Shown here: positions 1,908 to 61,057 of the stretch, piece after piece
How positions within the stretch are numbered: position 1 is the first letter of the stretch
Layout: every line of letters begins with the position of its first letter
DNA from: Candidatus Magasanikiibacteriota bacterium
Lineage (GTDB): Bacteria > Patescibacteriota > Patescibacteriia > Magasanikbacterales > GWA2-37-8
NCBI GenBank assembly: GCA_963840935.1
Contig: CAWJAS010000002.1
Span: 7,333-71,332 of the forward strand
DNA: 64,000 nt
Direction of reading: 5' to 3'
The notes under the pieces: model-generated
Database searches by the model: none
The model's input: the letters and a program-made list of their open reading frames with translations, nothing else
Told to the model about the DNA's origin: nothing
Made by a program: the position numbers and the translations under genes

Positions 1908-3190
<1,283 letters not shown>

Positions 3191-19700: not shown

Positions 19701-19702
19701 AG

Positions 19703-21529: not shown

Positions 21530-21533
21530 AACT

Positions 21534-21734: not shown

Positions 21735-21764
21735 ATTGTTTTGACTTTGATAAACTATTATAAT

Positions 21765-21792
21765 ATACTACTTATATTGAGTGTATATCAAA
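21765..21792 (-). promoter_or_regulatory. candidate promoter of the XRE-helicase-MTase operon (TTGATA-16-TAGTAT on minus strand)
   Basis: minus strand TTGATAtacactcaatataagTAGTAT upstream of the XRE gene. Confidence 0.3.
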
Positions 21793-21891
21793 TTGCTTAA
21801 TACAATGGTATCAAAAATATTAAAATTTGGCAAACAAAAAGGGAGTTCCTTAAACTTTTCCGCGCACGGGTGGTGGGGCAAGGAAAAGAAA

Positions 21892-22294
21892 TTGTCCGCC
21901 GAAAAATCCGTCCGTCCGAAAAGTTTTGGGGGCGAAGCCCAAGCAGGCGGGCAAAAAGGAAGGGGGTTGGGGGGAAGGAATTTTTGCCCGCCTGCTTCCG
22001 TTCCCGTTCCGTTTGAGCAAAGGAAAAGCGGAAGGGGGGTTTGGGGGGAATTCCGCTTTTCCTTTGCGAAATCAAATTGAGGCCAGCCCCGCCACCTGCC
22101 TGAATACTTGGAAGGCAGAACACCGCAGAAAAATACTCTTTTCATTAAAAGAAGAAAAAATCGGGCGCGCGCAAAATGAAAAGAGCAAAGAGTATTTTTC
22201 TGTGGTGTGGCGAGCTTGTCGAGCAGTGGCGGGGCTGGCTTCCTTATTGGGGGTTTTGCTCAAAAAAAGTTCGAACATCAATCAAAAAACACCG
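21892..22294. repeat. repeat R1, copy B (inverted relative to copy A)
   Basis: the reverse complement matches 17123-17524 with a few substitutions and one indel. Confidence 0.85.
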
Positions 22295-22425
22295 CCAATT
22301 TTCACTTTTTGTGAAATCGTAAGAAGCTGCCTCGGCGCAAAGCGCCTCGGCATGGTATTTTTCCGCTATTTTGAAGGCATTTTTGAAATCCAAAACCAAA
22401 GTGCGGTCGGCAATGCGGAAGTTCG
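22292..22425. repeat. repeat R2, copy A: inverted duplicate of the recombinase 3' end plus tRNA-Ser terminal CCGCCA
   Basis: 22292-22425 equals the reverse complement of 23910-24043 (~95%), including ccgcca that matches the tRNA 3' end; abuts R1 copy B. Confidence 0.85.
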
Positions 22426-22539
22426 CAGAGCGAAGCACTGGCAAAATGAAATTTTGCAAACCAATCTTTTTTCTTTCGCTTTCAGCGAAAGGTTGAGCGT
22501 ATTTTTCTTTGATTGCCCAAAAACTAATTTCAAAACAAT

Positions 22540-24133
<1,594 letters not shown>

Positions 24134-25756: not shown

Positions 25757-25764
25757 AAAAAGGC

Positions 25765-25790
25765 CCGGGTAAATTCCCGGGCCAAACGGC
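25765..25790 (-). terminator. hairpin terminator (ggcccgggtaaattcccgggcc) for the minus-strand lipoprotein gene
   Basis: perfect 8-bp stem followed by a T run on the minus strand. Confidence 0.5.
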
Positions 25791-25800: not shown

Positions 25801-26328
25801 CTACGGCAGGAAAAATGATTCGGCGAGGCAGTCCGGCTCACCGTCGTTTTTGAGACAGCAAGCTACGACCGCCGGGTATTCGACGGGGCAAGTCGTGGGG
25901 CTTGAGGTGCAGGGCGGAGTTTCGTCAACTCCGTTCCAGGTGACCGGCGACCAATAGGCACAACCGCTTCCGGAAAAACCGGAACAGCTTCCTTCGTGGT
26001 CCCAGCAAAACAAAATCTGATTGTCTCCGGGTACCGGCACGTCATAGCATTCGTGTGTCTCCAAACCGCAAACCTGATTCGGTTCGCAGTCATCGACCGA
26101 GTAACAAGAGGTGTCGGTGTCGGTGCCTGCATCTGATTCTGAATCGGTCTGGGAATCGGTGTCCGAATCCGTGTCTGAGTCGGTATCGGCGTCGGTGTCG
26201 GAATCCGTGTCAGAATCCGTATCCGCGTCGGTGTCGGCATCCGTGTCGCTACCCGGAAAAAACGGCGACGGACCAGAATCGCACCCGAGAACCGCAAGAA
26301 AACCGAGCAAAACCCCCAAAACCTTCAT
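25801..26328 (-). CDS. secreted lipoprotein with (D-T/S)n acidic dipeptide repeats and Cys-rich C-terminal domain; GC-rich gene
   Basis: MKVLGVLLGFLAVLGC lipobox; SDTDADTDADTDSDTDSDTDADTDSDTDSDTDS; strong SD (AAGGAGG) before ATG 26328; ~58% GC. Confidence 0.75.
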   Translation of the reverse strand: MKVLGVLLGFLAVLGCDSGPSPFFPGSDTDADTDADTDSDTDSDTDADTDSDTDSDTDSQTDSESDAGTDTDTSCYSVDDCEPNQVCGLETHECYDVPVPGDNQILFCWDHEGSCSGFSGSGCAYWSPVTWNGVDETPPCTSSPTTCPVEYPAVVACCLKNDGEPDCLAESFFLP

Positions 26329-26424
26329 GTTTGCCTCCTTTTTCAAAGCCGAGCTGTTGTTGTAAAGAACGCTTGTTCGCGACTTTATACTATACCTCAA
26401 AAACGCATAATTGTCAACGCAAAT

Positions 26425-27135
26425 CTATACTGTCCGGGCCAAAGTAATTGCCCAGATTTTTTTTGCTCCATTTTGCTTTAACACTTTGGCACATTCGAAT
26501 AAAGTCGCGCCGGTAGTAAAAACATCATCAACCAAAAAAATATTTTCCGATGGTTTATCGTCACGCCAATCAAACGCGCCGAATACATTTTCGGCGCGTT
26601 CCAATTTATTTAATTTTGCTTGTTGGGCGGTGGCCCTTTGTCTTATTAATCTATTTTTTAAAACAAAATTTTTATTTCCAATTTCAAGCGACAATTTATC
26701 AACAATAATTTTTGCAATAAGTTCCGATTGGTTATACCCGCGTTCTCTTTCTCGTTTTTTGTGAAGCGGGACGGGAATAACCGACCATTCACCGTTTTCT
26801 CGCGATAATTTAATTATATCTAAAAAATTTTTTTTAATAATTTTTTGCCACAACGATAAAATATCCCGAGTATAATTATATTTAAAATCAGCAATCAATT
26901 TTGCCAAGACCGATTCTTCTTTGTATACAAAAAATGAAAATGATCCATCAAGCGGACATAAATTTTTGCAGACAAGACACGTTTCACCGTTATTTGGCAA
27001 TCCGCAGGAAGGGCATTTTTTTATCGGTTCCAATTGTTCTCGCGCTAAACAATCCGGGCAAAGCCAATCCCCTTCCCGCCCGCATTTTAAACAAAAAATC
27101 GGAAACAATAAATCTTTTATGTATTTAACAAGCAT
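26425..27135 (-). CDS. comFC: ComF family protein (ComFC-like phosphoribosyltransferase-fold competence protein)
   Basis: N-terminal Cys cluster CLKCGREGDWLCPDC...CPSCG...CLVCK; C-terminal PRTase motif IFLVDDVFTTGATL. Confidence 0.85.
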   Translation of the reverse strand: MLVKYIKDLLFPIFCLKCGREGDWLCPDCLAREQLEPIKKCPSCGLPNNGETCLVCKNLCPLDGSFSFFVYKEESVLAKLIADFKYNYTRDILSLWQKIIKKNFLDIIKLSRENGEWSVIPVPLHKKRERERGYNQSELIAKIIVDKLSLEIGNKNFVLKNRLIRQRATAQQAKLNKLERAENVFGAFDWRDDKPSENIFLVDDVFTTGATLFECAKVLKQNGAKKIWAITLARTV

Positions 27136-27196: not shown

Positions 27197-27811
27197 TTAT
27201 TCAAAACTGTCAACAAGCCAAACATCGTTCGTTTTTACGAGTCTGACGGATGTTTTTTCACTTGTTTTTTCCGTGCTTGACCCTCTGGTAACGGTTCGCT
27301 GAACAGACATTTCAACCTTTGCGTTATCTGCAGAAAATTCAACCACATTTATAGCAACAACATTTGTAGTCACGCCAATAAAAGCCGCCGACGGCGGAGT
27401 ACCAATATGCTGGCTAATATCTTGCCACAGAGACATTGTAACAATCGACTGAACGGCGTAAATATTTTCACTGTTATTGTCGGTTGAATAAGTTCCGTAT
27501 CTTTCAATAAATATTTTGGCGGTTTGCTTGGCTGAGTTTTTCATCATTTCTTCGGTTGTCGGCGGTTTAACAGTGGCGCCCGGTGGGATTACCGTCGACG
27601 GTGTCATTATTTGAGACGGAAAATTTGTTTCATCAATTATATTTTCGTTTATCGGCGTCTCTTCGGCTACCGGTTCGCCCGACTTTTTTTTGAAAACAAT
27701 CAAGGAGATGCTAATGGCAAGAATAATAAAAACAGCCAAACTGATAATAATGAATATACGAGCTCGAAGTGTTATCATAATTTTTTTAATCAGCCGGCGC
27801 GACTGGCGCAC
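27197..27811 (-). CDS. hypothetical membrane-anchored protein
   Basis: N-terminal TM helix, no recognisable domain. Confidence 0.5.
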   Translation of the reverse strand: MRQSRRLIKKIMITLRARIFIIISLAVFIILAISISLIVFKKKSGEPVAEETPINENIIDETNFPSQIMTPSTVIPPGATVKPPTTEEMMKNSAKQTAKIFIERYGTYSTDNNSENIYAVQSIVTMSLWQDISQHIGTPPSAAFIGVTTNVVAINVVEFSADNAKVEMSVQRTVTRGSSTEKTSEKTSVRLVKTNDVWLVDSFE

Positions 27812-27820
27812 GGGTCGAAA

Positions 27821-29689
27821 TTATTTATTTGATTCGTCAAATTCTTTTTTGGCTTTTTCAATCGCCAGTAACTGCTCTGGATTGGTGGTAACAATCTGGT
27901 CCTCGGTATATGAAGCGACCACTTTTATGGCGGCATGTTTCAATCCGGCAAAAAATATTCCCTCGCCCACTCCGGACTCCAACAACAAATATTTTTCACT
28001 GTCGGTCAAAACAAAAATTTTCTGAATCAAGTCAATTGAAGCCGGAGATTGCCGCAATAATAATTGCAAAGCGGAATTTGTGACAATCGCCTGACCGTAC
28101 TGCGAACGCAAAAAGTCATTCACATCCTGAGTAATAGTCGTTACGCCCAAATAATATTTTCGGCATCTTTTGACAAGAGAAAAAATAAATCTGGCAGAAT
28201 CTTCATGCATCATCAACCACCAAGCTTCATCAATAACCAAAACTCTTTTCTTGCGTTCCGAACGAACGACATTCCAAATATAATTGACGATTGAATAAAT
28301 GGCAATCGGTCGCAATTCTTCTTCCAAATCGCGAACCGAGTAAATAACCAACTGATTATTCATGTCCACATTTGTTGGAGAATTAAAAAGTCCGGAAAAT
28401 GTGCCCTCGGTATATTTTTGCAGTTTCAAAACCAGCTCTTCACTGCCTTGCATTCCCTCCAAAATTTCTTGCAAATCCTGCACAATCGGCGGTTTAACCG
28501 TGGTTAAATCGGCATCGGGCGTAATATCTTTTTTGGCGTATGTTTCAATGAGCGCTCGGTCAATAATAGCGTCTTGTTCAACCGAAAGACCGCCAAGCAT
28601 GATGCGCAAAAGTCCTTTCATGGTAATAACCGCTCCCCTGATAACGTCTTCAGTGGATATTTCCATTCCAACCGGACGGGGCAAATCAAACGGATTAATT
28701 TTTGCCTCTGACGAAAGAGAAATATTTATATATGTTCCGCCGACCGCGTCGCTCAAATGTTTGTATTCCATTTCCGGGTCAATTACTATCACATCCACGC
28801 CCATCATCATGGTCCGCAAAATCTCCAATTTTATGGCATAACTTTTACCGGCACCCGAGGTGGCAAAAACAACCATATTGGCGTTTTGCAAAGAAAATCT
28901 ATCAAACAAAATCAAACTGTTATTGTGACGATTAATGCCGTAAAGAATTCCGTTGTCAGAGGTAAGCTCGGCCGAAATAAATGGAAACGAAGCGGCAATC
29001 GGCGAGCTGTTCATGTTGAAAGAAATGTACAGTTCATCGTTCCCCAAAGGCAAAGTGGAATTAAAACCCTGTTCGGCCTGATACAAAACCTTGCGAGTAA
29101 TAATTAATTTTCCGCCAAAAATATTTTCTATATCTTCGCTTACTTGATCCAATTTTTCTTTGTCTTTGGCGTAAACGGTGATGTAAAAACAAAATTGAAA
29201 AAAATGTTCCGTTCCTTGGGTGAGATTATCGCGCAGTTGTTCAATGTCGCGCAAGGCGGTTTCACGAATCGGGTCTCGCGGAGCGCCCTTCTCTGTGTCG
29301 GCGTTAATTTGCGCTTCCAACGCGCCCACCTTATTTTTGAGTTGTTTGAGTATTACGGCTGACTTAACCGGATAAAAAAACATGGAAATATCCATGGTGG
29401 TGGATAAATTAATCACCGGAGAAGCCCAACCGATGGAAATATATCGAGGATATGCCGTGACAAAAAGTGTCCGGCAAAAAACATCACCCAATTGAACAAA
29501 ACTCGACTCCACTCGAAAAGCGGACGGAGCGATTATGTCTCTTATGGTAACTACGCCTTCGCGATATATTTTTTCTTCTTCAAGAGTAACCAGTTCCTCG
29601 CCTGTCTTTCTTTGAATTTCAGAAGTCTCCGTTTTTAGACGGCTTGGCTCTTTAGTAATTTCTTTTGAAATTGTAGGTTTAAAAGCCAT
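27821..29689 (-). CDS. VirB4/TrbE-family type IV secretion ATPase (C-terminal ATPase portion)
   Basis: Walker A VFATSGAGKSY; Walker B RVLVIDEAWWLM (DEAW typical of VirB4). Confidence 0.8.
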   Translation of the reverse strand: MAFKPTISKEITKEPSRLKTETSEIQRKTGEELVTLEEEKIYREGVVTIRDIIAPSAFRVESSFVQLGDVFCRTLFVTAYPRYISIGWASPVINLSTTMDISMFFYPVKSAVILKQLKNKVGALEAQINADTEKGAPRDPIRETALRDIEQLRDNLTQGTEHFFQFCFYITVYAKDKEKLDQVSEDIENIFGGKLIITRKVLYQAEQGFNSTLPLGNDELYISFNMNSSPIAASFPFISAELTSDNGILYGINRHNNSLILFDRFSLQNANMVVFATSGAGKSYAIKLEILRTMMMGVDVIVIDPEMEYKHLSDAVGGTYINISLSSEAKINPFDLPRPVGMEISTEDVIRGAVITMKGLLRIMLGGLSVEQDAIIDRALIETYAKKDITPDADLTTVKPPIVQDLQEILEGMQGSEELVLKLQKYTEGTFSGLFNSPTNVDMNNQLVIYSVRDLEEELRPIAIYSIVNYIWNVVRSERKKRVLVIDEAWWLMMHEDSARFIFSLVKRCRKYYLGVTTITQDVNDFLRSQYGQAIVTNSALQLLLRQSPASIDLIQKIFVLTDSEKYLLLESGVGEGIFFAGLKHAAIKVVASYTEDQIVTTNPEQLLAIEKAKKEFDESNK

Positions 29690-29692
29690 ATT

Positions 29693-30379
29693 TTACGCGT
29701 CTTCTAAATTAAAATCCCCCAAAGGAGCAAGCGGTTCCGATAAAGCGATGTCGGGATTAAAAGTTGAATAAAACAATTCTATTAATGATTGTGTGTCAAG
29801 CCGAACCACCTCAAGCCCCATTCCGGTCAATCCAGACTCAACTTGGCGAACGCGCATATCCAAGTCATATTTTCGTTTAAAAAATCTTTCGTCTTTTAAT
29901 TTAATGGTTATGGCCGGATTAAAAACCTCGGAAGCTCTGGACCAAAAACCCTTTTTCTTATTAGTCAACGGGTCATATGGCACAATAACATAAAATTGCT
30001 TGCTCATAATTTTTCCCAAATCAACCAACTCGGAAACAAATGAACGATAATCGGCGATTTGCATGCGCAAAAGTTCATTGGGCTGTTCCCGTTCTTTTTT
30101 GGCCAAATTTTCCAAATATGGGCGAACATTTAACTGGCGTGATTGAATAACAATCTGCAAAGGATGGTCCAAGCTATTCAAAAAAGAAACATAGGAATTA
30201 ATTATCGCCTGCTGTTCATCGTCGTTTTTGAGCGCAAAATTGATGCTTGATACCATCAAGACCGACCTCAAAGTGCCGTCTTTCATCACAATAGTGTCAT
30301 TACGAACTTCGGAGATAGTTAAATTTTTTTGCGCCGACGGCTTATTCGCTCTGGATTGTACGGCTGATTTATTTTTCAT
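29693..30379 (-). CDS. VirB4-like N-terminal domain protein (split T4SS ATPase), hypothetical
   Basis: stop is 3 nt before the VirB4 ATPase start; N-terminal region pattern DGTLRSVLMVSSINFAL...QIVIQSRQLNV resembles VirB4 N-terminal domains. Confidence 0.45.
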   Translation of the reverse strand: MKNKSAVQSRANKPSAQKNLTISEVRNDTIVMKDGTLRSVLMVSSINFALKNDDEQQAIINSYVSFLNSLDHPLQIVIQSRQLNVRPYLENLAKKEREQPNELLRMQIADYRSFVSELVDLGKIMSKQFYVIVPYDPLTNKKKGFWSRASEVFNPAITIKLKDERFFKRKYDLDMRVRQVESGLTGMGLEVVRLDTQSLIELFYSTFNPDIALSEPLAPLGDFNLEDA

Positions 30380-30401
30380 AATTTACCATCTTGAAAATTA
30401 A

Positions 30402-30839
30402 TTATTCTTCCGCTTGATAATAACCGCCGGTATTAACTGTGAGCGACAGATCGCGGATACGGCTGTATGAATACCTTTTGATTGCTACGGCTTTTTCAGG
30501 CACAATCACTCTTCCTTCCCCGCGCAATCTTTTTATGTCTTCCGTGGTATATAATTTGTTCCAAATTCGAAGCGATGGACGACGCAGAGTTTGGATGATA
30601 TTAAGCAAAAAATAATGGAAGGCTTGGCCGTTTATTTTTACAAAAGCGACTACCAATGAGCCACCACCGATAACAATCAACAAAACAACAAACAAGGCGA
30701 AGTCCGCCAATTTGAAAGCGGCAAAAAGTGTTAAACCGGCGGCCAAAAGAATCACAAATTGACGGGCGGTTACCGGCCCAAATATTTTGTCTTCAACATC
30801 GATAAATTGCGGAACAACAAATTGTGATTCAACCGGCAT
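30402..30839 (-). CDS. PrgI-family (VirB3-like) small membrane protein
   Basis: VPQFIDVEDKIFGPVTARQFVILLAAGLTLFAAF plus two TM helices. Confidence 0.5.
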   Translation of the reverse strand: MPVESQFVVPQFIDVEDKIFGPVTARQFVILLAAGLTLFAAFKLADFALFVVLLIVIGGGSLVVAFVKINGQAFHYFLLNIIQTLRRPSLRIWNKLYTTEDIKRLRGEGRVIVPEKAVAIKRYSYSRIRDLSLTVNTGGYYQAEE

Positions 30840-30845
30840 AAAAAA

Positions 30846-31958
30846 TTATAACAAATCTTTTTCCATTTTAATTAAGGCGTTGATTTCATCTATGGATATT
30901 TTCTCGTTTTTGACTCTTTCTGTCAATTTTGATTTTGCGTTCAGAGCTTCAACCGAGGCATTAACATAGTCAATAAAAAGAGGACTCCCTCGCCAAGCTT
31001 CTAGCGCGTTAATAAAAAGCAAATATGATTCTTCTTTCAAATTAATAAACTTCTGTTTTAATCGGGCGGCGGCTTCTTCAGGATTTGTTGATAAACGACG
31101 AAAATCTGTCAATGTAAAAAATCTGATTTCATCAACCGGTCCCAAGTTCATCGGTTTGGCCGGAGTAATATCCTGCATTATCGGACGGGCTTGGCTGTTA
31201 TTTTTTGGCATTATATCCCCGCTTTCAATCACTCTGCCGGGTGAAGAAATATTTTTTGGCGCATGAATAAAAGGATTATTGGGAGTTGATACTGCCGGAA
31301 AAGGTTCACGGTCTTCTTTTGCTAATGCAGTCGGAGTACCAAGTGGTCTTTTGAGTACCGGCACATTCGTTTCAACCGGTTTTTTTCTTTTTTCTTCAAT
31401 TAATTTCAAAACTTTTTCAGTTTGTTCTTTGTTTAACCCGATTCCCATTTGATTTTCCGGCATCATCATCCAGTCGCGAGCTTCGTCTTCCGAGCGAATA
31501 TCTTTCAGACGCAATTGGACAAGACCGATCAAGCGCTTTTCCGTGTTAGGGTTTAATTTCAAACCGGATTTTTGCACAATTTCTTTTGCTTCAACCAAAC
31601 GGTCTTCAGACTTTGATTTGGTCCCACCCGCTGGCATTTCATCTTCCAAAAGGGATTTGGCGTCTTCTTTGCCAAAAGATACACTCGATTTTGGCGCAGG
31701 ACTCTCAATTTTTTTTACTTGCGGAGGAGTCATCGGCAAAATCTTTTTTATTTCCGGTTTTTTGGGTAGAATTTGTTTTGGCGGTTCGATTTTTTTGGGC
31801 GCTTGCGGAATGACGGTCGGTTTTTTTGGCGGTTCAGCCGGTACTGCCGGAACAACGCTCTTTTTCCCGCGAGCGCGAAACTCCTCGAGCGTTATTTTCT
31901 CGATTGTGCCGTCAGAATGTTTAATTGGAATCAAAGTCGCCATAATTATATATTCCAT
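30846..31958 (-). CDS. hypothetical Pro/Lys-rich protein in the T4SS-like cluster
   Basis: PKKPTVIPQAPKKIEPPKQILPKKPEIKK repeats; no domain recognised. Confidence 0.5.
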   Translation of the reverse strand: MEYIIMATLIPIKHSDGTIEKITLEEFRARGKKSVVPAVPAEPPKKPTVIPQAPKKIEPPKQILPKKPEIKKILPMTPPQVKKIESPAPKSSVSFGKEDAKSLLEDEMPAGGTKSKSEDRLVEAKEIVQKSGLKLNPNTEKRLIGLVQLRLKDIRSEDEARDWMMMPENQMGIGLNKEQTEKVLKLIEEKRKKPVETNVPVLKRPLGTPTALAKEDREPFPAVSTPNNPFIHAPKNISSPGRVIESGDIMPKNNSQARPIMQDITPAKPMNLGPVDEIRFFTLTDFRRLSTNPEEAAARLKQKFINLKEESYLLFINALEAWRGSPLFIDYVNASVEALNAKSKLTERVKNEKISIDEINALIKMEKDLL

Positions 31959-33013
31959 TTGAATTTGCCGGACTCTTCATCAAAATAATAAAGCTCGGCG
32001 ATTTTTGGGTCATTGTATTTTTTTGAAGCTTTTTCCAAAGCCATCATCACCGAATCCAAATCTTCATAATTACCATTCGTGTCTTTTTCAAAGACGGCGT
32101 CAATTTTTTGATAAATTTCGGAATATGAGGGTTTAACTAATTCTGGTTGCGAAGAAACATCGGGCATAACTGCGGGAATATTTTTTTGCGCTACAACCGA
32201 TGTAGTTTTGAAAACAGGCGCGAGTTTTACAGGTGTATTACCAATTTTATTTTCACTTAATATCAGTATTGAATTCGGTATTTCAGGCACTTCTGTCGGT
32301 GGGAAACTTTTTTCAAAAGAAGAAATATCAGCCACATATTCTTCTATGTCTTCAATATTGGACCGAGTATAACTCAAAACTTTTACAGCCATTTCCTCCG
32401 GCTTTGTCTCCAAGAAGAATTCTAGCAAATCAAACAATTCAGTATAAAAATCATTTGCTTCCGCCATAAAAAACTCTACAGCGAATTCGTCGTTATCCAA
32501 ATTAATTATTTTTCTTATTTTTTCGATAAACTGCGCCATCTCAATTGAGTCCCTGCCTTTACTGCGAATAAGTTTCATTTCTTGGACTGCGTCAGCTATT
32601 GTGTATTTTTTTTCTTCCCAATACCCGATAATGGCACCGGACTGGAGTAACGCGTCTTTGACTTGAATAAAAAGAGTGCGATACTCGTCAATGCGTATGC
32701 ATTTAGTGTTAAAAAACCAAATAATTTTTAAAAACACATCAAAATTCAAAAATAAAGCTTCGGCAATTTGTTTTTTAATCGCCAATTCGACAAATTCTTC
32801 TTTTGACAACCAAACCAAATCTTCCCATATCATTTCCGTGAGATGAGCAAAATTACCGTACCGGTCAGAATAATCTTCTTCATATGAAGTGGCTGTATAT
32901 TTGCCAAGCAAAGCGATTTTTAATTCGGTTTTTTGCTGTAAATTCAATTTATTAAAAAAATCGCGTTCTTCTTTTAACTTGGCCATGTCAAATTTTATCG
33001 ACACTGCGTTCAT
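31946..33013 (-). CDS. hypothetical protein in the T4SS-like cluster
   Basis: long ORF overlapping its downstream neighbour by 13 nt. Confidence 0.5.
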   Translation of the reverse strand: MNAVSIKFDMAKLKEERDFFNKLNLQQKTELKIALLGKYTATSYEEDYSDRYGNFAHLTEMIWEDLVWLSKEEFVELAIKKQIAEALFLNFDVFLKIIWFFNTKCIRIDEYRTLFIQVKDALLQSGAIIGYWEEKKYTIADAVQEMKLIRSKGRDSIEMAQFIEKIRKIINLDNDEFAVEFFMAEANDFYTELFDLLEFFLETKPEEMAVKVLSYTRSNIEDIEEYVADISSFEKSFPPTEVPEIPNSILILSENKIGNTPVKLAPVFKTTSVVAQKNIPAVMPDVSSQPELVKPSYSEIYQKIDAVFEKDTNGNYEDLDSVMMALEKASKKYNDPKIAELYYFDEESGKFKWNI

Positions 33014-33050
33014 AATTATTAATTACTTTTATATTTCTCAATTTAATACA

Positions 33051-35774
33051 TTAATAATTGGGACTGATAATTGGCTCATATTCTTCACCACCTTGATATT
33101 CATCTATTCTAGAAAATAACGGAACAGGCTCTTTACCTTTAACCGGAACTTTAATACCATCGCCTAATGCATCTTTTATCTTTTCATCAAGACGCGCGAA
33201 CAAGGCTTTCACGCCTTTGTCATTATCCGGATTAGCTTTTATCATACCATTAACAACAAGCTGAAGATTTTGTTTTATTTGGCCCTTTCTCTCGTCACTC
33301 GCCGTTAATACTTCTGAGAATATTTCATTCAAATCAGCGACATCTTGAAACGCGACATTAGCCGCCCGTGGAGGCGTAATTCCTCGATACCTGCTAACCA
33401 AATTATCTCTGGCCGCTTCGCTGTCGCAGCTTAATCTCACTTTGCCATCAGCGTGGTCACGATCAACCATGCCTCTCAAACCTCTCGCCCTACCGGCTGA
33501 AGCTTGGCTGCGCGCTTGTATTACTTTATTCTCGCGAAATCTATTATCATCATCATTGGTTGGGTCAACCAATTTCCAAGAACCATCACGATTTGTCCTC
33601 ATTAAACCGGCAAAAGAAATTGCGCCATTATCGGCCATATTTTCAAAAGAATTTGCGAGCACTGTCATCGCGCCTTCAAATTGTCCTCCCATTTTTGTCT
33701 TTAATTCATCAAACGCAGTTCTGACAGCATCGGTTGAAGCATCGACTTGTCTATCAAGATGAGCCGATAAAAAATCGGCTTGTTGAGCAACAACATCGCC
33801 CGCTTCTCTAACGCCTTGAGTCGGGCTAACAATTGCCATAGCTTTGACACCCAGCGAAGCGCTTCGTGACATAGCCGCCTGCATCATATCAGTCAAATCT
33901 TCAGTCAAAGCCTCTCTCTTTGTTGAGCCAACTTCACTCTGATCGCGCGCTGTCTTAATTCTCTCCATTTCACTTAAAAATAAATCCGCGTTTTGCGTAT
34001 TCCAAAATTCCATATCTTCTTTTTTATGTCTGGCTGCCAAATCTTGGGTATAACGAGTTGTCGCAACACCCCTTCTGTGTTCATACTCAGTATTTCTTGC
34101 TTCAGCCACTCTACCTTGCTCGGCTCGTTCTCCTTCAATTTTTAAACGCGCTGTTTGCGCTTCTCGAAAATACAACCCTTCTTCACCTTTAAACATTCCG
34201 GGTTCTTGCTTGATTAATTTCTCAATGGCTTCGTTAGAACGTTTTGTTTTTACATATTCTTTACCTTTTCCCAACGCCTTAATTTTCGCCTCTAGATAAG
34301 CGGTTTCATCCTTCATTTTGGGCGGAGCGCCAACTGTTGAAGCACCGGTAATTTGTTGTCGCAACTCAATTTGTTTTTTTAATTCATCCATTCTACCTTT
34401 TCTGCCACCAACTTGAAGCCTTTGTCTTATTCCGCCGGCCTTATACCCTCCCATTACTTTTTCATTCCAAAACCCAACTGCTTCGCCTGCTTTCTTTTTC
34501 ATTCTCAAACCCCTTTCTTGCCACGCCTCACCCCCAACAATTGGAGCTTTCATCGCCGCAAACTTACCCGCTTTTTTTGCTCCGCTCACTGCCGCGCGCC
34601 CGGCCGTCCTTGCCCCCCATTTAACCGCTGCCACACCACTCATCATCGCCGCGCCCTTCATGGCAAACGCGCCGGCTTGACCCATAATTTCTGAACCGGC
34701 CGCACCGAGTTTTGTGGCAACTTTAACACCGGCCATAAGCATAAAAAAAGCGATTAGAAAACTGGCCAACTGTTCGCTTTCCAAAAATTTATTCAAATTA
34801 GACCCGCCCTCCTCCTCGCCTTCTCGTGAAACAGTTTCCATCTCTGCCTTGTAATTATCGCCCATCGGGTATGAGCTTTCAGCAAACTCACTATGCGCCA
34901 TTCCCCCGCCGGCCACGGCAAAAGCCAACCATAAGAAAAAAGCCAAAACCGGTCCGATAATAACGTTATTGGAAAATTCACTCCACCATTGACTGGAATA
35001 TGTTTGAAATTTTGGAATAATTCCAAGGATAAAAGCAAGGGGAGAAAGTATTATTAAAATCCACAAAGCAATTACGCGCGATAAAAGAACGATTAAATAA
35101 CCACCCATAACCAACATGGTGCCAAAAGCAAAAATCATTGCCATCATGGCCGAGGCCACCATATTCCCGGAACTCATTTCTGTTGGACTGACATTTTTAG
35201 AAAAAGAAACTATGTCGTTTAATTGCAAGGCATTGAATATATTGCCACCGGCTGTAGCCGCGACTCCACTAATAAAAGTCATCATAAAAACCTGCGCCGC
35301 ATCAATTATCACTCCGCAAATTACGCGTGAAAAATTAACCAAAATTGCGGCCAGCACAAATTTTACCAATAATTTTTTCCATTCATATTGCTCAATGCCA
35401 AGAACCGTGACAAACGCGATAAGCATTAAAATGATTACAAAAAACATGTTCGTGATATCGCGCACCAAAATCCAACCCAAACCCACCGCGTTTGAATTAA
35501 TATAACCGTTGTAACTGGCAATTTCTATGACAAATTTCAAAATAAAAATAGTCAAACCCATGAACTTTGAAGCAATCCACAAAAACAAATCACCAATAGC
35601 CATTAATATTGAATCACCTATACTGCCGTCTTCGCCACGCGCAATATCTCCGACAACAAAAAGGAAGAAAAGGCAAAGGCCGGCAACAAAAATTCCGGAC
35701 ATCAAACCCAGCCGAGTTTTCGGTTTGATTATATTCAAAAATTGTTTTCCCTTCTGAACCAGGGAATTTACCAT
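33051..35774 (-). CDS. large polytopic membrane protein (VirB6/TrbL-like channel candidate) with coiled-coil C-terminal region
   Basis: ~10 TM helices in the first 450 aa, then charged coiled-coil; start at ATG 35774 downstream of TTGTGC-17-TGTGGTATAAT. Confidence 0.55.
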   Translation of the reverse strand: MVNSLVQKGKQFLNIIKPKTRLGLMSGIFVAGLCLFFLFVVGDIARGEDGSIGDSILMAIGDLFLWIASKFMGLTIFILKFVIEIASYNGYINSNAVGLGWILVRDITNMFFVIILMLIAFVTVLGIEQYEWKKLLVKFVLAAILVNFSRVICGVIIDAAQVFMMTFISGVAATAGGNIFNALQLNDIVSFSKNVSPTEMSSGNMVASAMMAMIFAFGTMLVMGGYLIVLLSRVIALWILIILSPLAFILGIIPKFQTYSSQWWSEFSNNVIIGPVLAFFLWLAFAVAGGGMAHSEFAESSYPMGDNYKAEMETVSREGEEEGGSNLNKFLESEQLASFLIAFFMLMAGVKVATKLGAAGSEIMGQAGAFAMKGAAMMSGVAAVKWGARTAGRAAVSGAKKAGKFAAMKAPIVGGEAWQERGLRMKKKAGEAVGFWNEKVMGGYKAGGIRQRLQVGGRKGRMDELKKQIELRQQITGASTVGAPPKMKDETAYLEAKIKALGKGKEYVKTKRSNEAIEKLIKQEPGMFKGEEGLYFREAQTARLKIEGERAEQGRVAEARNTEYEHRRGVATTRYTQDLAARHKKEDMEFWNTQNADLFLSEMERIKTARDQSEVGSTKREALTEDLTDMMQAAMSRSASLGVKAMAIVSPTQGVREAGDVVAQQADFLSAHLDRQVDASTDAVRTAFDELKTKMGGQFEGAMTVLANSFENMADNGAISFAGLMRTNRDGSWKLVDPTNDDDNRFRENKVIQARSQASAGRARGLRGMVDRDHADGKVRLSCDSEAARDNLVSRYRGITPPRAANVAFQDVADLNEIFSEVLTASDERKGQIKQNLQLVVNGMIKANPDNDKGVKALFARLDEKIKDALGDGIKVPVKGKEPVPLFSRIDEYQGGEEYEPIISPNY

Positions 35775-35913
35775 ATAATCTTTATTTGCATAGATTACTT
35801 TAATATTATACCACATAATAACAGCGCGCACAAAGTAAAATATGACGCATTTTTATCCACAGAAATTTAGTATTTTATTTATAAAAAATAATTATTATTG
35901 CGAGGGCTGACTA

Positions 35914-35942
35914 TTGACAAAACCGTCAAAATGTGCTATTAT
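35914..35942 (+). promoter_or_regulatory. strong sigma-70 promoter (TTGACA-17-TATTAT with TGTG) for the second DTDS lipoprotein
   Basis: cTATTGACAaaaccgtcaaaaTGTGcTATTAT, near-identical to the promoter at 10653. Confidence 0.45.
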
Positions 35943-36070: not shown

Positions 36071-36649
36071 ATGGAAAAGAAGATGGACCTGAAGCGTCTG
36101 TTCGTGGTTTTCGTCATGACCGCCGGCCTCATCGCCTACGGCATGCTCACGAACGGTTGCGACGAGGGCGACGACGACTGCGCGGACACCGACTGCGACT
36201 CGGACAGCGATACCGACGGCGACACCGACTCGGATACGGATTCGGACACGGATTCCGATACCGACTCCGACACCGACTCGGATACGGACACCGACACCGA
36301 GGTCGACCCGCACGCCTGCGACTGTTTGAACGGCGAGTCGGACGAGGAAGGGTGCGTGGACATCGAGGGTGATTGGTACGTTTACGACTTCTGCTGTGAG
36401 GCAGACGAATTGATGACTGTGGTATTGACTCCGCTCGAAGACAACTGCAAGATCGAGTTTTCGGGTGACGGCGCATGGTTTATTAACTTACATTTCGAGA
36501 CCACCGAACTGCCGACCGAGCTGCACGACGAGGATGAGGACGCAACATACGAGCTGTTGATTGATGAGTATGGCAGACTCATCCAAAAAAAAACCTGGAA
36601 TGCATCGGGTGATGATGATTTCATCGCCTACGAAAGATGTGATTGCTGA
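36071..36649 (+). CDS. secreted lipoprotein with (DTDS)n repeats and Cys-rich acidic C-terminal domain; GC-rich gene
   Basis: LIAYGMLTNGC lipobox; DTDGDTDSDTDSDTDSDTDSDTDSDTDTDTE; GGAGG before the ATG. Confidence 0.75.
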   Translation: MEKKMDLKRLFVVFVMTAGLIAYGMLTNGCDEGDDDCADTDCDSDSDTDGDTDSDTDSDTDSDTDSDTDSDTDTDTEVDPHACDCLNGESDEEGCVDIEGDWYVYDFCCEADELMTVVLTPLEDNCKIEFSGDGAWFINLHFETTELPTELHDEDEDATYELLIDEYGRLIQKKTWNASGDDDFIAYERCDC

Positions 36650-36710
36650 CCTGCCTATTGCCTTGGCACCACGCCAAGGTCCTGCCCTTCGGAGCATCCT
36701 GCTCCAGACA

Positions 36711-36737
36711 CCCGCGATTTCATCGCGGGTTTTTATT
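36711..36737 (+). terminator. rho-independent terminator after the lipoprotein gene
   Basis: cccgcgat-ttc-atcgcggg followed by tttttatt. Confidence 0.55.
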
Positions 36738-37016: not shown

Positions 37017-40000
37017 TTAGCTTCCTGCCATCGGCACAACCACCACCCAGCCATCATAATATATCCAAGGTCTCACCTTATTTATTTCACAATCATTAAC
37101 AGTCATCTCACTATAACACCCTTTCCCATCTACTTGTGGATTTGAAGAATATGTACAACTCCCCGTGCACCAACCCCAATTATCAAGCACATGAACTTTT
37201 GGCCGGGCAACGCAAACATATGGGGCATTATAAAAATTCTGACGGATATAATTCCAATCAATTGACCTGCCGGAAATCGGAGTATCCGGCTGTTCGTTGC
37301 TCATCACAATCTCCATTGTGCCATAAGGGCAATTATAGTCCATTACAAAATCCCAAGGTTTATCTTTGCAACCGGTGTCTGTGGTGTTGCCGAAAGTTCG
37401 CTCCTCGGCGCTTTGCGGATAACAAGATGAACCACCGCAATCGGCATTAGTATTGCACGTAAAAGGCCAATCTTCTTCGTCGTTACCGCATGTACTATCA
37501 GTGCACAAAGGTTTTCTATTACCTATTGAATCGCTAATTTCCGAATCAACTTGTGTATCATTATCATCACCTTTATTAACAACCACTCTGCGTAAGGGCA
37601 TTTGATTGCCATGCGCCCAAGCATAAAATTTAATTCGCGTCTGCGAACCGGAAAATAAATAAATATTCCCACTGGTGGTGCCATTGACAGAAATTTTGTC
37701 TAACTCCCAAGAACTGCCTGATGGCGCGGCAACTTGAGGCGGATAAATATCCATTTGTCCAATTCTACTTGCATTTGTTGGATTCGCAGCATCAACTTCT
37801 TGATAATACGATACATACCCGATATCAAAACCGTTTTCCACGTCATTATAATAATAATCATAGACTTTTGCGAACATGCTTTTCATCAACACTTTTTCAA
37901 AAGGCCCTTGTTGCATTGAAGTAGTATCTTCCATGGCATCCAAACTATATTTAAAATATTCGGGAAGACAATAAGACCCAGTACAATCATTTTTACGCTT
38001 ACCGCTCCAAGCAACAGACAGCGGGGTGCCAGCCTTATAATTTGTAAACGCATAATTATTATCTTGACTTCCGTTTTGCGAAAAAGGAATATTCTTTGTA
38101 TCTAAATTTAAATTAAAAACAAATGGGTTAATAAAAGCTGCGGTGGTAATACCTGTGATATCCACTAATCCGGATTCTGTACTGTAAGCAAGGCCGTATT
38201 TTCCGCCATTCAACGTCTCTTCTCGAGGAGAAACTTGCGCGGTCGTTGGATAATTACTACTAAAACTGACGACCTTATCTGTATTTAATCGATTGGTAAA
38301 CGGTTTGGCCAAGAAGTCGCTCGTGCTACTAACCATTGAGACCTGAGCGAACTTTTGACATTTACCGGGAGCAAAATGAATAACAAAGAAATAGCCTAAA
38401 CCGGAGTTGCCAGAATGTAAACCATTTTCAACATTCAACCAAATACCGCGGAAATAGTATTGATCATCAAATACTATCCTAACTCCGATACTTTCTTTTT
38501 CATCTTCAAAAGCATGATAAACCATTCTGTCTTTATCTTCACAAATTCCCTCAATAGCTATTTTTTCCTTACCTAAATCAGTGCTACTTCCATCAGACCA
38601 TTGATTCAACCAATTCGGACTGCCACTGTTTTTTGCATACCAAGTCCAGGCGCGCCAATCTTTACCGTCTTTACACAAATTATCCAACGAAGCGGTTGAA
38701 ATACTTGTTTCACCTTCATTGGTTATCCAACCACCGTCTTCTGTAATAAAAGCTCTGTTTGATTCTTCCTCTGCGTCCGCATCGACTGAATCTCTTATGA
38801 AACTGACCCACCCTCCTCCTTTTGGCATATTGGTCGCGCTGTCAAGAAATACATCTATTCTTTCTATTTCATCGCGATGAATATATTTTCCGCTTTCAGT
38901 GTTCAACCATTTTCTATCTGTATACCACCAACCCTCGTTGTCCCTGCACCCTTCCGGTGTCTCATAGCAACCCCTTTGTGTCAATTCATCAACATCTGTA
39001 ATGTCAACATTTACAGGACAGTACCAGCCATTAGAATCATTACTATCGGTAGACTGATAGTAACGCATATCCCAACCCCAATCACTACTAACTTCATATG
39101 AACAACCGATTAATATCGCGTTATCCGGAACACCTTTTATGCCCATACCGGCTGACAAACTTAAATCAGAAATCATTGAATCGTCTCTCATCATTCCTTT
39201 GGGCCAATTACCTCCGAAATCTTTTGCATTAGAATTACCCATGGCAATGCCGACATTTTGATATGAATCTTGTATAGTAGGCTCATTTTCCAAACACATA
39301 AATCTATCCTGCGCGCCTTCAAGAATTTCATATCCGGCATTCGGGTCTTGCTCCCAATAATTGGGAATACCCGGCGGATATTCGAGTGGGAACCAAGTCA
39401 AACAAGCATTGGAAGTTGAACCGTAAATTCTTTGGCGTTCGTCTCGTTCGGTGCAATAGCCAAGCCAGCCATTCATCACTTGAAAACTATTTATTTTGGA
39501 GCAGATTCCACCTTCTCCGCATTGAGTGGTTGTTTCCGGGTCAGTGCAAAATTTGCCTTTGTACGGGCCGGATGAACAAATATAATTACCGGACATTGAT
39601 TCTGTTTTGCTTATACGCTTGTAAACATCGCCACTGCCGGTTTTTAATTTTCGATATGAACAATAATAATCATAATCGCAAGAAACCGGATTGCCATTAT
39701 CACTATAACATAAGTTCACATTTTCAAATCCCGTTTTGTATTGAAGCGGTTTATCTCTTTCATAATCAATAAGCACGCTCGACCTGAAAGGACTGACTTC
39801 TTCGGCATATGCCCGGCAAGTCAATACTCTTGATTGCGCCGGATTTGTGGCGCTGTATCCTTTCAAACATTCGCCGTTATAACAATAACCCCAAGTACCA
39901 CCGGGCCCGCACTGGTCGCCATCGTCTTTTTGTCCATAAAGAAGATCTGCGGAATCATAACAGCTATTGATATCGTCTTCATTCAAAAAACTATATTGAT

Positions 40001-43000
40001 TGTTCACATAAACCAAACGATAAGTGTCATCAATTTTTCTGGCTGTAAGGTCGGGCACTTGATAAGTGTTAAAAAGCGAATAACCGGAAAAATCCCAGGA
40101 ATCCCAAGAGGTCATCAAATCCTGATAATAATCTTTTGACAATGTTTCACCTTTTGTATCCCAATCGGTCGCCGGTTCGGCGCAATCCTTGACCACTCGA
40201 CCGGCGACAGTGTCAACCGCGCCGGCGCGATTACAAACACCAAGATGATAGCAACGATTTTTTATTTCACCGGAATCTTCATCTTCAAATTCTTGTTTAA
40301 GGTCGCAATAGGCCCACTCTCCGCAAACACGGTCTTGAGTCACTTTAATAATAATATTGGCGTCATTACTACCAGTAAGAGAAACCGGCGCGACAAGAGC
40401 GTCGTTTAATTCACGCGATGTTTCATATGATGAAGTGGTGTGCCAAAATTTATTTGGATTGCCGGTTTTATCAAGCAAAACACATCCTTCCGCTCGGCTG
40501 ATTTGGCCGTTACACTTGCTTTGAGCTTCACTTAATTTTGTATTATCAATTAAATAATAGGCGTTGCTCGTATTAACCACGCAATATCCGTCAGTTTCCG
40601 GAACACAGTCACTATCGGCATTGCACTTTTTACCGCTAATGGAACATTTTTTGTTTTCTTGCGTACTACTCCAATCAATAAATTCATTACAACCCGACTG
40701 TTCTTCGGGGCAAAGACCGACAAAACCGGTATATTTTTCTGTGTTGCCGAATGACCAAAGACCATACACTCCAAAAGATTTATTTTCCGCGTAACAAGGA
40801 AGTTGATTTTTGAACATACATTTACCTATGCCAATATGGTTCTCACAGTCGGTGTCAGCGGTACAGGCTCGACCCATATATAATCCGGCGTCTTCCAAAA
40901 TACAAATTCCGGTATCTTTCCATATCCACCCGGTTGAGTTAGGATGCGCGGATAATTTCGAAGTTGAAGTTGGTTGCATTTGCAATGTTGCCGGCAAATG
41001 GATAGCGATAAAGGCTTCTGTCTTGTATTCACAAATCAAACCGCCGTTTGTTACCGGGTCTTTAAAGTAATAATTGCTCTGGCTTGAAGACCATGATTTG
41101 CAGGATTCGGCCTCGGAGAAACAAGACATTGATTCATAAAGAGCCGGGTCATTTTTTATGCCCACGGCCTCAAATGTTTCATAGTGAGTGAACAGCGTGG
41201 TTGGATTGCCAAAAAAATCAAAATTATAACTCTTTCCGCTTATGTTTGTTGTGGCGCGCCCCACAACTTGGCAACCCATATTTTCGGATTTGCATGTGGC
41301 TGATTTATTGGCCACCAAATATATGGGCGTGCTTGACGGAGTATCCGCCGGAATAAATATGGTTGAATCAACCAACTTTGGCTTTGCGTTATCACCGACA
41401 GTTTCCCCGCCGTTAAATATTTGCTCCGCGGTTTTATCAAAAACATCAACATAACAACCTGTCTGGCCGGTCGGGGCAAAACATTCAAAAAGTTCACCAT
41501 CTATTGTTGCTTTTGCTTGCATCCCCGGAGTTAAACTGGGTTCATACATAAGCAATTCCAATCGCACATTATAAGCGCGGGAAGTCGTATCTTCCGGAGT
41601 GTTAAATGTGTCAATCAAAGCGGTGCAACCAACCGCCGCTTCACGGCATAAATAATTAAAATTGGTAAGATAGTAATTGGTTTGTGTCGGGTCAGTGTAT
41701 GCCGAACAACCCAAGGCCTCGCCCGGTAAATTATCATTTGTGTTACTGTCGCAAATCGGGTCAACACTCAAAGAATTTTTTACCAAATACAGGTAATCAT
41801 CAACTTCCGTCAAAATAATATTATCTATATAAATCTGCCCGACACTATTCCCGAAAGTAAAACGCAATTCACCGCTCAAGGTATCTTCTCCGTTGTATTC
41901 AACCGGTCCCAAGGAATAATAGCGCCAAACATCCGATAAAACTAAAGTGTTGTCAGATAATGATTGCTCTGTCATGGTGGAATTATCCAACAAAGCAATT
42001 TTGTTTATCGCTAAATTGCCTTTCGCCCAAAATGACAAAACGTAATTCTTGCCTTTTTTAAATGATAAATTAATTTTACCGGCCAGACTATTAGCAGATG
42101 CCGATTCGGCTGTAATTTTGAGAGAATGACCTTCGAGCTGAGTCGATTCCGTGGAAATTATCTCGCTCATGCTAGCCGTAGTTTTCCAATCAATCGTTGT
42201 GGTTGAATATTCAAAATCCTCTTCAACAATCTTGCGAACATTGTATCCGGCGTTACCTTTGAAGGACCGGCATGAATTTGATTCGGCAGAACAGGCAATA
42301 CTATCGCCGGCGCCATTTGTGTTGCCGGTAAAGCCCATATAGAAACAAGCATTGCTTCGGAATTCAACCGTGGCATCACCGGTGTGGTTGTCAACTTCAC
42401 CATTATCAAAATCAAACGGACAGCGAGGGGCCTCGCTTTCATAAGAAATCAATTCAGTGTTATTAAGCCGGTACGGAGTGCACTGGTCGGTGACAATTAA
42501 TGTTTTTGAAAGCATGGCATAATGCGTGTCGCCAAATTCATCAATAAATTGATGACAATCTGGTTCGGCCGTTTTGTTAGCGTAGCTCTCTTCCGAGCAA
42601 TAATCATTATCCGGCGCGGTATATTTATTCATCTCATCTCCATCGCGATAAATTTGTTTAGGCCCGTTTGATTTGTCGCTCTTCGCCAAAGTATATGTTT
42701 TAATTTCATAGCCTTTTGTTTCGGAACGCTCATAGACAGTGTAATTTCTTTGCAAATTTTGGTCAGGCAAAATGCACGGACGCAAATAAGTGAAGTATTC
42801 GTTTTGTTCCAATCCGCCGACCGTGGTGGATAAATTTGTGAACGAACTGCAACCGGCTTCTTCGGCCGAGCAAGTTTTTCCGGATGATGGAATAATGTAT
42901 GTTATTAATTCACCATTGGTGTAGTTACTTGGCATTTCACGATAAGCATCATAACCAACGCATTTGTAATCGCATTGGTCGTTCCATGTGACAATTCCCC

Positions 43001-61009: not shown

Positions 61010-61057
61010 CAACGCTTAGCGCCACACAAAGCTTAGTGTTCCATATAAGATTAGTAT

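Follow-up and report, generated by a model that had tools for sequence, protein, structure and literature searches.

The 64,000-nucleotide stretch of DNA analysed here (the window), from contig CAWJAS010000002.1 of a Candidatus Magasanikiibacteriota bacterium, contains two small lipoprotein-type genes, gene A (25801-26328, minus strand) and gene B (36071-36649, plus strand), which are far richer in GC than the chromosome around them and lie on either side of a gene cluster resembling a type IV secretion system (T4SS). On balance, A and B are probably two unrelated, lineage-restricted lipoproteins that belong to a clade-wide GC-rich class, whose composition has been kept vertically against an AT-biased background. 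A further proposal is possible rather than probable, namely that hypervariable orphan lipoprotein genes of several unrelated families are held in many species at a gene-specific GC-rich equilibrium, with a GC content at third codon positions (GC3) of ~0.75 in genomes of GC3 ~0.2-0.5, by a locus- or transcript-specific force so far undescribed in bacteria belonging to the candidate phyla radiation (CPR).

Architecture and expression signals of genes A and B

The features of the two genes are listed below with the evidence for each.

25801..26328, minus strand: gene A, 175-residue lipoprotein precursor of the A family (open reading frame (ORF), Shine-Dalgarno sequence, ATG, GC3 0.625, orthologues P0001/L001, L004 and P0002)
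26281..26328, minus strand: predicted signal peptide and lipobox of gene A, MKVLGVLLGFLAVLG-C16 (read off the sequence; Cys16 invariant in a 3-sequence alignment)
26107..26247, minus strand: polyanionic (D-T/S/A)n repeat of gene A, residues 28-74 (12-nt period, imperfect; length differs between orthologues)
25804..26106, minus strand: Cys-rich head of gene A, 12 Cys in 101 residues (12/12 Cys invariant among aligned family members)
26389..26417, minus strand: promoter-like site of gene A, TTGACA-17-TATAGT (matches the consensus at 11/12 positions)
25762..25783, minus strand: intrinsic terminator of gene A (8 G-C pairs, then a T-run)
36071..36649, plus strand: gene B, 192-residue lipoprotein precursor of the B family (ORF, GC3 0.736, members P0009-P0015, L003 and L004)
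36071..36160, plus strand: predicted signal peptide of gene B up to the conserved Cys30 (invariant in an 8-sequence alignment)
36161..36301, plus strand: acidic linker of gene B with (DTDS)n, residues 31-77 (periodic imperfect repeat; modelled as disordered, predicted local distance difference test (pLDDT) score 45-58)
36302..36646, plus strand: head of gene B, 115 residues, 8 Cys, predicted 8-stranded beta structure with conserved Cys (AlphaFold2 pLDDT >90, ~residues 80-190)
35914..35942, plus strand: promoter-like site of gene B, TTGACA-17-TATTAT with TG (matches the consensus at 11/12 positions)
36710..36730, plus strand: intrinsic terminator of gene B (9-pair stem, then a T-run)

As far as sequence can tell, A and B are real genes whose products carry predicted lipobox-type export signals, a stalk and a Cys-rich head. 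Both ORFs were confirmed where a preliminary description of this DNA had placed a lipobox signal peptide, Asp-Thr/Ser repeats and a Cys-rich C-terminal domain. The start codon of gene A is the ATG at 26328, with AAGGAGG 6 nt upstream, and the protein consists of the MKVLGVLLGFLAVLG|C start, a 47-residue D-T/S/A repeat and a 101-residue head, which is 97% identical to that of P0001 and 46% identical to that of P0002. Its N-terminus, MK-VLGVLLGFLAVLG, has a basic n-region and a hydrophobic h-region, and its lipobox, V-L-G-C, fits the pattern [LVI][ASTVI][GAS]C. The N-terminus of the gene B product, MEKKMDLKR-LFVVFVMTAGLIAYGML, likewise has a basic n-region followed by a hydrophobic h-region. The lipobox of the window copy of B, T-N-G-C, is non-canonical, so that the call is less secure for this copy; 6 of the 7 aligned relatives have VTAC, YTAC, FTAC, IPAC, TVAC, TSGC or a similar lipobox. 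The C-termini of the two proteins (...AESFFLP for A and ...AYERCDC for B) carry no LPXTG sortase signal.

The promoters of A and B are of the sigma-70 type and are set in AT-rich DNA, each gene forming an autonomous transcription unit. The repeat DNA has a 12-nt period in both genes. Between copies, identity is only 62-81%, which bears out the earlier remark that the repeats vary synonymously and avoid exact DNA repeats. Scanning A and B against Pfam and NCBIfam gave low-complexity matches to the repeat only, and no Pfam family; an Rfam scan across both GC-rich islands gave no RNA family. Neither Lgt nor Lsp was found among the annotated ORFs of the window. Three independent assemblies contain the exact B protein, beside the same neighbour. 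Together with the syntenic GC-rich orthologues present in another metagenome (see below), this shows that A and B are not assembly artefacts.

A and B share a design made up of a lipobox, a polyanionic stalk of ~45 residues and a disulfide-rich head. They had been described as paralogous, but BLASTP, run with the whole proteins and with the heads, gave only E values above 5. To judge from these comparisons, A and B are not paralogues; they have a common design and composition, with heads that show no detectable similarity. The A family has 4 known members (the window, P0001/L001, L004 and P0002), and the B family ~12, including those of the window, L001, L003, L004 and P0009-P0015, with the conserved motif DPTACDCL...IEGDWY...C-K-V.

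Downstream of gene B, at 36733-36970, we observed two 22-nt perfect palindromes (CCCGTCAGTCG[C/T]GACTGACGGG), 206 bp apart, whose 31-nt inverted arms flank a ~176-bp segment of ~45-50% GC. The pair is either a double terminator or an element resembling a miniature inverted-repeat transposable element; the rest of the window contains no further copy of the motif, and 0 would be expected by chance.

Base composition and codon use

The composition of A and B was compared with that of the other 47 ORFs of the window (GC3 0.38, standard deviation (sd) 0.055). Both genes were clearly atypical: gene A has 56.6% GC and a GC3 of 0.625 (+4.4 sd), gene B 55.1% GC and a GC3 of 0.736 (+6.4 sd). GC is elevated in the signal-peptide, repeat and head parts alike, so the richness does extend past the repeats, as the preliminary description had stated, although the background from which it departs is ~40% GC and not ~36%. 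GC at first and second codon positions (GC1 and GC2) is also raised, and the amino-acid composition is shifted accordingly. When 25 island genes from this and related loci were pooled, 4-fold degenerate sites had C at 0.43 and G at 0.31 (background 0.22 and 0.19), the share of C among C/T-ending codons was 0.72, and so was that of G among A/G-ending codons, against backgrounds of 0.24 and 0.30, respectively. C and G were thus both enriched, and this held in every degeneracy class; in composition the island genes resemble the genes of a genome of 60-65% GC.

It is very unlikely that this pattern reflects expression-linked codon bias, with A and B as very abundant proteins at the extreme of translational selection. 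There are very abundant lipoproteins, such as Lpp of Escherichia coli, the consensus promoters and Shine-Dalgarno sequences of A and B are strong, and rplK and nusG likewise favour C-ending pyrimidine codons. However, the ribosomal and other proxies for high expression in the window (rpsP, rplK, nusG and clpP) reach a GC3 of only 0.38-0.50, and at Glu, Lys and Gln they prefer A-ending codons, G making up a fraction of 0.12-0.27 there, as against 0.56 in A and 0.68 in B. In rplK, nusG, clpP and gyrB, C is up at pyrimidine-ending codons while G is down at Glu/Lys/Gln codons (0.12-0.20); the 4-fold sites of the island genes are rich in both G and C, and their GC1 and GC2 are up too. The GC content of A and B is therefore not that of the highly expressed genes of this genome, a likeness that the preliminary description had named as evidence that would speak against its reading. 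The gene for a giant 2758-residue surface protein, next to B, and that for a 223-residue protein with thrombospondin repeats have an ordinary GC3 (0.38-0.44), indicating that GC richness is not a general feature of secreted proteins here.

GC-rich lipoprotein genes at the same junction across the clade

In a survey of 160 related loci (2.16 Mb in total), the ORFs with an outlying GC3 were mostly small lipoprotein genes. The lipobox pattern first used was too strict and missed B and several obvious lipoproteins, so that counts based on it are lower bounds. Gene B lies in the window between the giant-protein gene and the gene for a 926-residue polytopic membrane protein of the T4SS-like cluster, and this same junction held one or two small orphan lipoprotein genes in 16 of the 18 distinct mapped loci. 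In their products, of 124-291 residues, a linker that is acidic or rich in Pro/Gly follows the lipobox and leads to a Cys-containing head; a Pfam scan of ten of those other than A and B gave no family. They diverge rapidly: the nonsynonymous divergence (dN) of the junction lipoproteins is 0.2-0.7 between species whose VirB4 proteins are 94-99% identical. A conserved slot beside the T4SS machinery thus holds a small, fast-diverging surface lipoprotein.

The 26 genes of the junction class had a mean GC3 of 0.75 against a background of 0.37, with a mean excess of 0.38 (range 0.18-0.59); examples are L024 (0.89 in a background of 0.30), L027 (0.93 in 0.34) and L109 (0.78 in 0.22). In the pooled profile, GC stays at 0.34-0.38 until 50 nt before the start codon, is 0.60-0.66 in the coding sequence and 0.57 in the terminator, and is back at 0.32-0.36 from 50 nt past the stop codon. 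This sharp profile indicates that the GC-rich tract coincides with the transcription unit. In the literature searched we found no earlier description of GC-rich lipoprotein genes in Patescibacteria, nor of a conserved compositional signature at a fixed slot; stalked lipoproteins themselves are of a familiar kind.

Several of the surveyed loci had particular arrangements. In L010 (2277-3743) and L015 (2280-3710), two GC-rich lipoprotein genes of different families, divergent in orientation, occupy the junction slot, with a GC3 of 0.82-0.85 in all four genes. The same two loci contain ~380-residue genes without a lipobox (L010 13561-14718 and L015 13404-14546; GC3 0.75-0.80 in a background of 0.37-0.43), directly downstream of the gene for a ComF-like phosphoribosyltransferase, a position equivalent to the site of gene A. 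On the short contig L162, the third A-family member (P0002, 261-821) is followed by a second GC-rich lipoprotein gene (967-1218, MGKLLTIFVCLFAVAGC...), an order which suggests that GC-rich genes of predicted lipoproteins can occur in tandem.

Evolutionary history of A and B

In L001, a second metagenome contig with ~85% DNA identity to the window, gene order is identical and A and B are both present and both GC-rich. Between the window and L001, synonymous divergence (dS) was 0.79-0.89 for gene A and 0.72-0.95 for eight flanking genes, and the dN/dS ratio of gene A was 0.02-0.06 (~0.02 in the head). The equality of dS with that of the flanks and the low dN/dS of the head indicate that A has diverged together with its neighbours under strong purifying selection. 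The constraint on this sense frame also agrees with the earlier view that the antisense ORFs over the repeats are artefacts. B-family genes were found next to the giant-protein gene in the window, L001, L002 (P0010), L003, L004, L006, L164 and the outgroup L007. The family was present in all members of the species group that were examined, with a GC3 of 0.51-0.84, and in L002 and L163 it adjoins the giant gene despite a rearranged T4SS side. The identity of B heads correlated with that of the 926-residue protein with r=0.55.

Gene A lies between the ComF-like gene and the gene for a 534-residue membrane protein. In most relatives these two genes are only 2-20 bp apart, suggesting that A is an insertion, either old and repeatedly lost, or passed among lineages. 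At the A site of L003 there is a GC-rich gap of 366 bp; considered as a possible remnant of gene A, it turned out to consist of arrayed palindromic repeat elements, and that reading was rejected. At L003 13260-13580, in the ComF/534-residue junction, we observed tandem GC-rich palindromic units of ~70-80 bp (...CTCCCCTAACCCCTCTCTTTGTAAGAGAGGGGAAGCGTCACCTCCC...). This array shows the junction to be a hotspot for insertions within the clade.

The search for possible donors covered the A and B families. An exhaustive HMMER search with the A head against 1.84 billion representatives returned P0001 and P0002 only; its other matches were long repetitive proteins and were discarded as spurious. A profile search with B in a word-indexed database of 5.8 billion clusters returned 7 proteins, the single named record among them being from Patescibacteria, and the loci examined had a Patescibacteria-type T4SS or giant-protein neighbours. 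No relative of A or B was found among the plasmids and viral contigs searched; homologues of A or B of other than Patescibacteria type were thus absent from all these protein, plasmid and viral searches. A word-indexed search with the B head alone gave no match and failed to recover even B, a protein recorded in identical form. This negative is therefore uninformative, and the method is unreliable for short queries of odd composition.

A recent horizontal acquisition from a GC-rich donor, with islands yet to drift to the composition of the host, is improbable. The strongly atypical GC at all codon positions, like that of the genes of a 60-65% GC genome, would fit it, as would the insertion of A into a junction mostly 2-20 bp wide in relatives and the patchy distribution of that gene. 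On the other hand, related species have GC-rich syntenic orthologues, dS of gene A equals that of the flanks, the promoters are AT-rich and of native type with GC boundaries that coincide with the transcription unit, and no donor homologue was obtained (1.84e9 representatives for A, the profile search for B, plasmids and viral contigs). Neither island is adjoined by a mobility gene; the nearest recombinase gene (22841-24097) is parted from A by the conserved 534-residue gene. The preliminary description had considered horizontal acquisition possible and had named homologues with a vertical history as the evidence that would speak against it. Such homologues exist, B being found throughout the species group and A having the dS of its flanks, and with syntenic GC-rich orthologues and no relatives outside, a recent transfer is unsupported. 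An ancient transfer of A or B may have taken place. Taken together, the vertical history and the codon pattern mean that neither recent horizontal gene transfer nor expression-linked bias explains the GC richness. For the detection of horizontal transfer this is a caution, as atypical composition here does not equal recent foreign origin.

Maintained or residual GC richness

We compared pairs of family members from the same site. In five of them (window B/L006, window A/L004, L021/L093, L010a/L015a and L105/L109) the proportion of synonymous differences (pS) was 0.56-0.83 and dS ranged from ~1 to unmeasurable; the pair L010b/L015b was unsaturated, with a dS of ~0.8. The GC content of 4-fold sites was nevertheless 0.64-0.85 in both members of every tested pair. 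For the same pairs, VirB4 identity at 4-fold sites was 0.35-0.43, against a saturation expectation of 0.26-0.35. In a two-state relaxation estimate, the residual memory per lineage was about one third in L021/L093 and L105/L109. According to this estimate, these two pairs should retain an excess of at most ~0.2-0.3 after neutral decay, even from a start at 100% GC, whereas 0.4-0.6 was observed. The excess beyond neutral decay in the deeper pairs favours a maintained gene-specific equilibrium over lagging amelioration, and the composition appears to be inherited vertically and to be maintained rather than residual. A persistent directional force would then keep the genes GC-rich, either selection on the transcript or on synonymous sites, or GC-biased conversion linked to recombination.

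The alternative that deserves most attention, although we regard it as unlikely, is ancient or recurrent transfer from a GC-rich pool into a slot next to the T4SS that is permissive for recombination, the source being for example GC-rich CPR relatives or the bacteria on which the epibionts live. The GC richness would then reflect origin, and replacement would be too frequent for amelioration to complete. Consistent with this, several mutually unrecognisable families occupy the same slot, and other GC3 outliers in these loci include non-lipoproteins (the ~380-residue genes of L010 and L015); relatives of 55-59% GC with the same T4SS exist, the two types of B head do not fully follow species relations, and the amino-acid composition is GC-shifted too. 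What speaks for maintenance instead is that both members of same-site family pairs are still GC-rich at a dS of ~0.8 to beyond measurement, and that the estimated excess in L021/L093 and L105/L109 is larger than neutral decay from 100% GC allows. Moreover, no donor was detected for A or B, and every incoming gene would need the same design of lipobox, linker and Cys-containing head.

Several points weigh against a vertically kept, maintained composition. BLASTP and hhalign, the latter with very shallow profiles, showed no homology between junction families; as these are not detectably homologous, repeated non-orthologous replacement from an unseen GC-rich pool is possible. The donor searches above concern the families of A and B. 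The two types among the B heads agree only in part with species relations, and A is patchy, being present in the window, L001, L004 and P0002 and absent from L002, L003 and L006. The relaxation argument is powerless for the window and L001 (dS ~0.8), where slow neutral amelioration from a very GC-rich ancestor is possible, and the forces proposed above are candidate causes of the GC richness. If the composition is indeed maintained by selection or by biased conversion, these genes offer a clean natural system for the study of base-composition control in bacteria, and the combination of a GC3-outlier ORF with a lipobox would flag surface factors in uncultured lineages.

The closest precedent in composition comes from Borrelia. 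The vls surface lipoprotein system has ~49% GC in a genome of ~28.6%, is conserved across species and is regarded as selected (PMC11499132). Like the island genes, vls genes are surface-lipoprotein genes far above the GC of an AT-rich genome while their sequences diverge. A vls-like antigenic or phase variation, in which the high GC would act as a signal for recombination, namely for segmental conversion into an expression site for surface lipoproteins, was thus considered. It is suggested by the conserved high GC of lipoprotein genes in an AT-rich genome, as in Borrelia vls (PMC11499132), and by the fast evolution of the proteins, yet it is highly improbable here. The vls genes have G-runs, a coding-strand GC skew of ~0.52 and silent cassettes arrayed next to them, none of which was seen: the GC skew of the island genes is -0.17 to +0.08 (pooled -0.03), and G-runs are no commoner than C-runs. 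No silent cassette or partial copy was found by tblastn in the window or within +/-10 kb of any locus, each locus giving one match. Furthermore, the A head is under strong purifying selection, so that A is conserved and not variable. Should the genes be held at a GC-rich equilibrium, they would present a vls-like compositional signature without cassettes or skew.

The T4SS-like cluster and a possible role in host contact

The genes that neighbour A and B, and those of the cluster between them, are the following.

27197..35831, minus strand: T4SS-like cluster between A and B (orthologue Pfam matches PF12666, PF26593, PF01935 and PF19044; synteny across 160 loci)
27821-29689, minus strand: VirB4, in the T4SS-like cluster
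29693-30379, minus strand: TraC-like protein, in the T4SS-like cluster
30402-30839, minus strand: PrgI/VirB3, in the T4SS-like cluster
26425..27135, minus strand: ComF-like phosphoribosyltransferase, neighbour of A (weak Pfam matches below gathering thresholds, to phosphoribosyl-transferase and zinc-ribbon/zinc-finger families)
37017..45293, minus strand: 2758-residue Cys-rich giant surface protein with a CBM_4_9 domain, convergent with B (ORF and domain match)

Further members of the cluster encode proteins of 204, 370 and 355 residues and the 926-residue polytopic membrane protein. The latter had no Pfam or NCBIfam match, and no family match was obtained for the 534-residue membrane protein beside A. 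The giant gene is preceded by that of the 223-residue protein (45296-45967), whose repeats are bacterial thrombospondin type-3 (Ca-binding) repeats.

Patescibacteria are obligate epibionts. We propose that each protein would be exported by means of its signal peptide and anchored through the lipobox Cys, and that a compact, disulfide-rich head would be held off the membrane by a disordered polyanionic (Asp-Thr/Ser)n stalk of ~45 residues. A and B bracket the chromosomal T4SS-like cluster, with B placed between the giant gene and the 926-residue gene and A at the ComF/534-residue junction, and they belong to a clade-wide, fast-evolving class of orphan lipoproteins at this locus. They may serve as surface accessories of a host-contact apparatus made up of the T4SS and the giant adhesin, with partner recognition, exclusion-like activity or ligand binding as possible roles. 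No adhesin or specificity factor has so far been recognised with the Patescibacteria T4SS, and the slot provides candidates for host recognition or exclusion. If the genes are held at a GC-rich equilibrium, their products are probable determinants of host or partner specificity.

A survey of the Patescibacteria T4SS detected no adhesin and noted that profile models fail for VirB7-type lipoproteins because these evolve too fast; T4SS-like genes were required for epibiotic growth in the single cultivated strain tested, and these lipoproteins are not mentioned (PMC12102498). The exclusion protein YddJ of ICEBs1 targets the VirB6 homologue ConG (bioRxiv 10.1101/2021.01.25.428195). Like VirB7 and exclusion proteins, A and B are small, exported by prediction, encoded in or beside a T4SS cluster near a polytopic membrane component, fast-diverging and without a usable family model; YddJ, too, is a lipoprotein. 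A small, fast-evolving lipoprotein gene in or next to the T4SS cluster was the rule at the junctions (16/18). Unlike those systems, the Patescibacteria system is of monoderm type, chromosomal and without VirB9 or VirB10 partners, and neither VirB7 nor exclusion genes are known to be GC-rich, the likeness resting on position and design.

The acidic dipeptide repeat, as a spacer between an anchor and a folded part, also recalls the staphylococcal Sdr/Clf proteins, which belong to the microbial surface components recognizing adhesive matrix molecules (MSCRAMMs). NCBIfam Sdr/Clf models matched only the repeat region of A and B, with 24-39 bits against cut-offs of 999-2500. In contrast to Sdr/Clf proteins, A and B have no LPXTG and no A-domain, their predicted anchor is an N-terminal lipid and not a C-terminal sortase signal, and their repeat is DT/DS rather than SD. 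No glycosyltransferase family, including the SdgA/B type that modifies SD repeats and that the preliminary description had proposed to look for nearby, was found among the window ORFs scanned. The Ca-binding or adhesin-like function which it had suggested for A and B gained no support, with neither LPXTG nor an MSCRAMM A-domain present.

The AlphaFold2 model of gene A was poor (pLDDT 44) and unusable for fold comparison. For B, a model based on the 8-sequence alignment gave a head of eight beta strands with a pLDDT above 90 and a disordered stalk. Its best matches in the PDB were all calycins (lipocalins, CRABP, avidins and NanoLuc), none of them significant (Foldseek E >= 0.03, template modelling (TM) score 0.29-0.38). 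Bacterial lipocalin/calycin lipoproteins (for example of the Blc type) similarly place an 8-stranded all-beta domain on a lipid anchor; unlike these, the B head has no lipocalin sequence motifs, and its best structural match had an E value of 0.03 and TM <= 0.38. The head modelled for B may be a calycin-like barrel. The proposed role in host contact is to be read with reserve: the fold matches are weak, the 926-residue protein is only putatively VirB6/PrgH, from its position, and the function of A and B is suggested by position and predicted architecture.

The start of the window and other features of the chromosome

The window is an ordinary chromosomal region, with SMC, gyrB, prfA, clpP, rpsP, rplK, nusG, trmD, ftsW and queA. 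The relatives of its VirB4 ATPase place the lineage in Candidatus Magasanikbacteria, a group of the Patescibacteria/CPR. Its start differs: from position 1 to ~1930-1950 there is ~1.9 kb of DNA of 58-68% GC, which encodes an extracytoplasmic function (ECF) sigma factor split between two reading frames by a frameshift, a zf-HC2 anti-sigma factor, and a cytochrome b561 that breaks off at ~residue 82. This DNA adjoins a 16S rRNA gene (1852-3183, minus strand), which ends prematurely, at position 1335 of the 1533 of the model. The preliminary description had thought it conceivable that the islands are related to this high-GC DNA; most probably, the start is a chimeric join within a conserved rRNA gene and is unrelated to them. 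Even with one probable chimeric join in the window, at ~1850-1950, there is next to no likelihood that assembly chimera or contamination accounts for the islands themselves, as native AT-rich flanks are found on both sides of them within a few tens of bases and the same arrangement recurs in many independent assemblies.

A low-GC stretch (33-36%) at 17526-24133 contains an N6/N4 DNA methylase and a ResIII helicase-type restriction subunit. These are followed by the large serine recombinase gene at 22841-24097, the 3' end of which overlaps a tRNA-Ser(GCT) gene (24038-24133). The whole stretch is possibly an integrated element; it does not adjoin gene A.

Finally, a tRNA-Ile gene with the anticodon TAT (UAU) is present at 60937-61010. 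A tRNA-Ile(UAU) is uncommon in bacteria, in which AUA is usually read by a lysidine-modified CAU tRNA.

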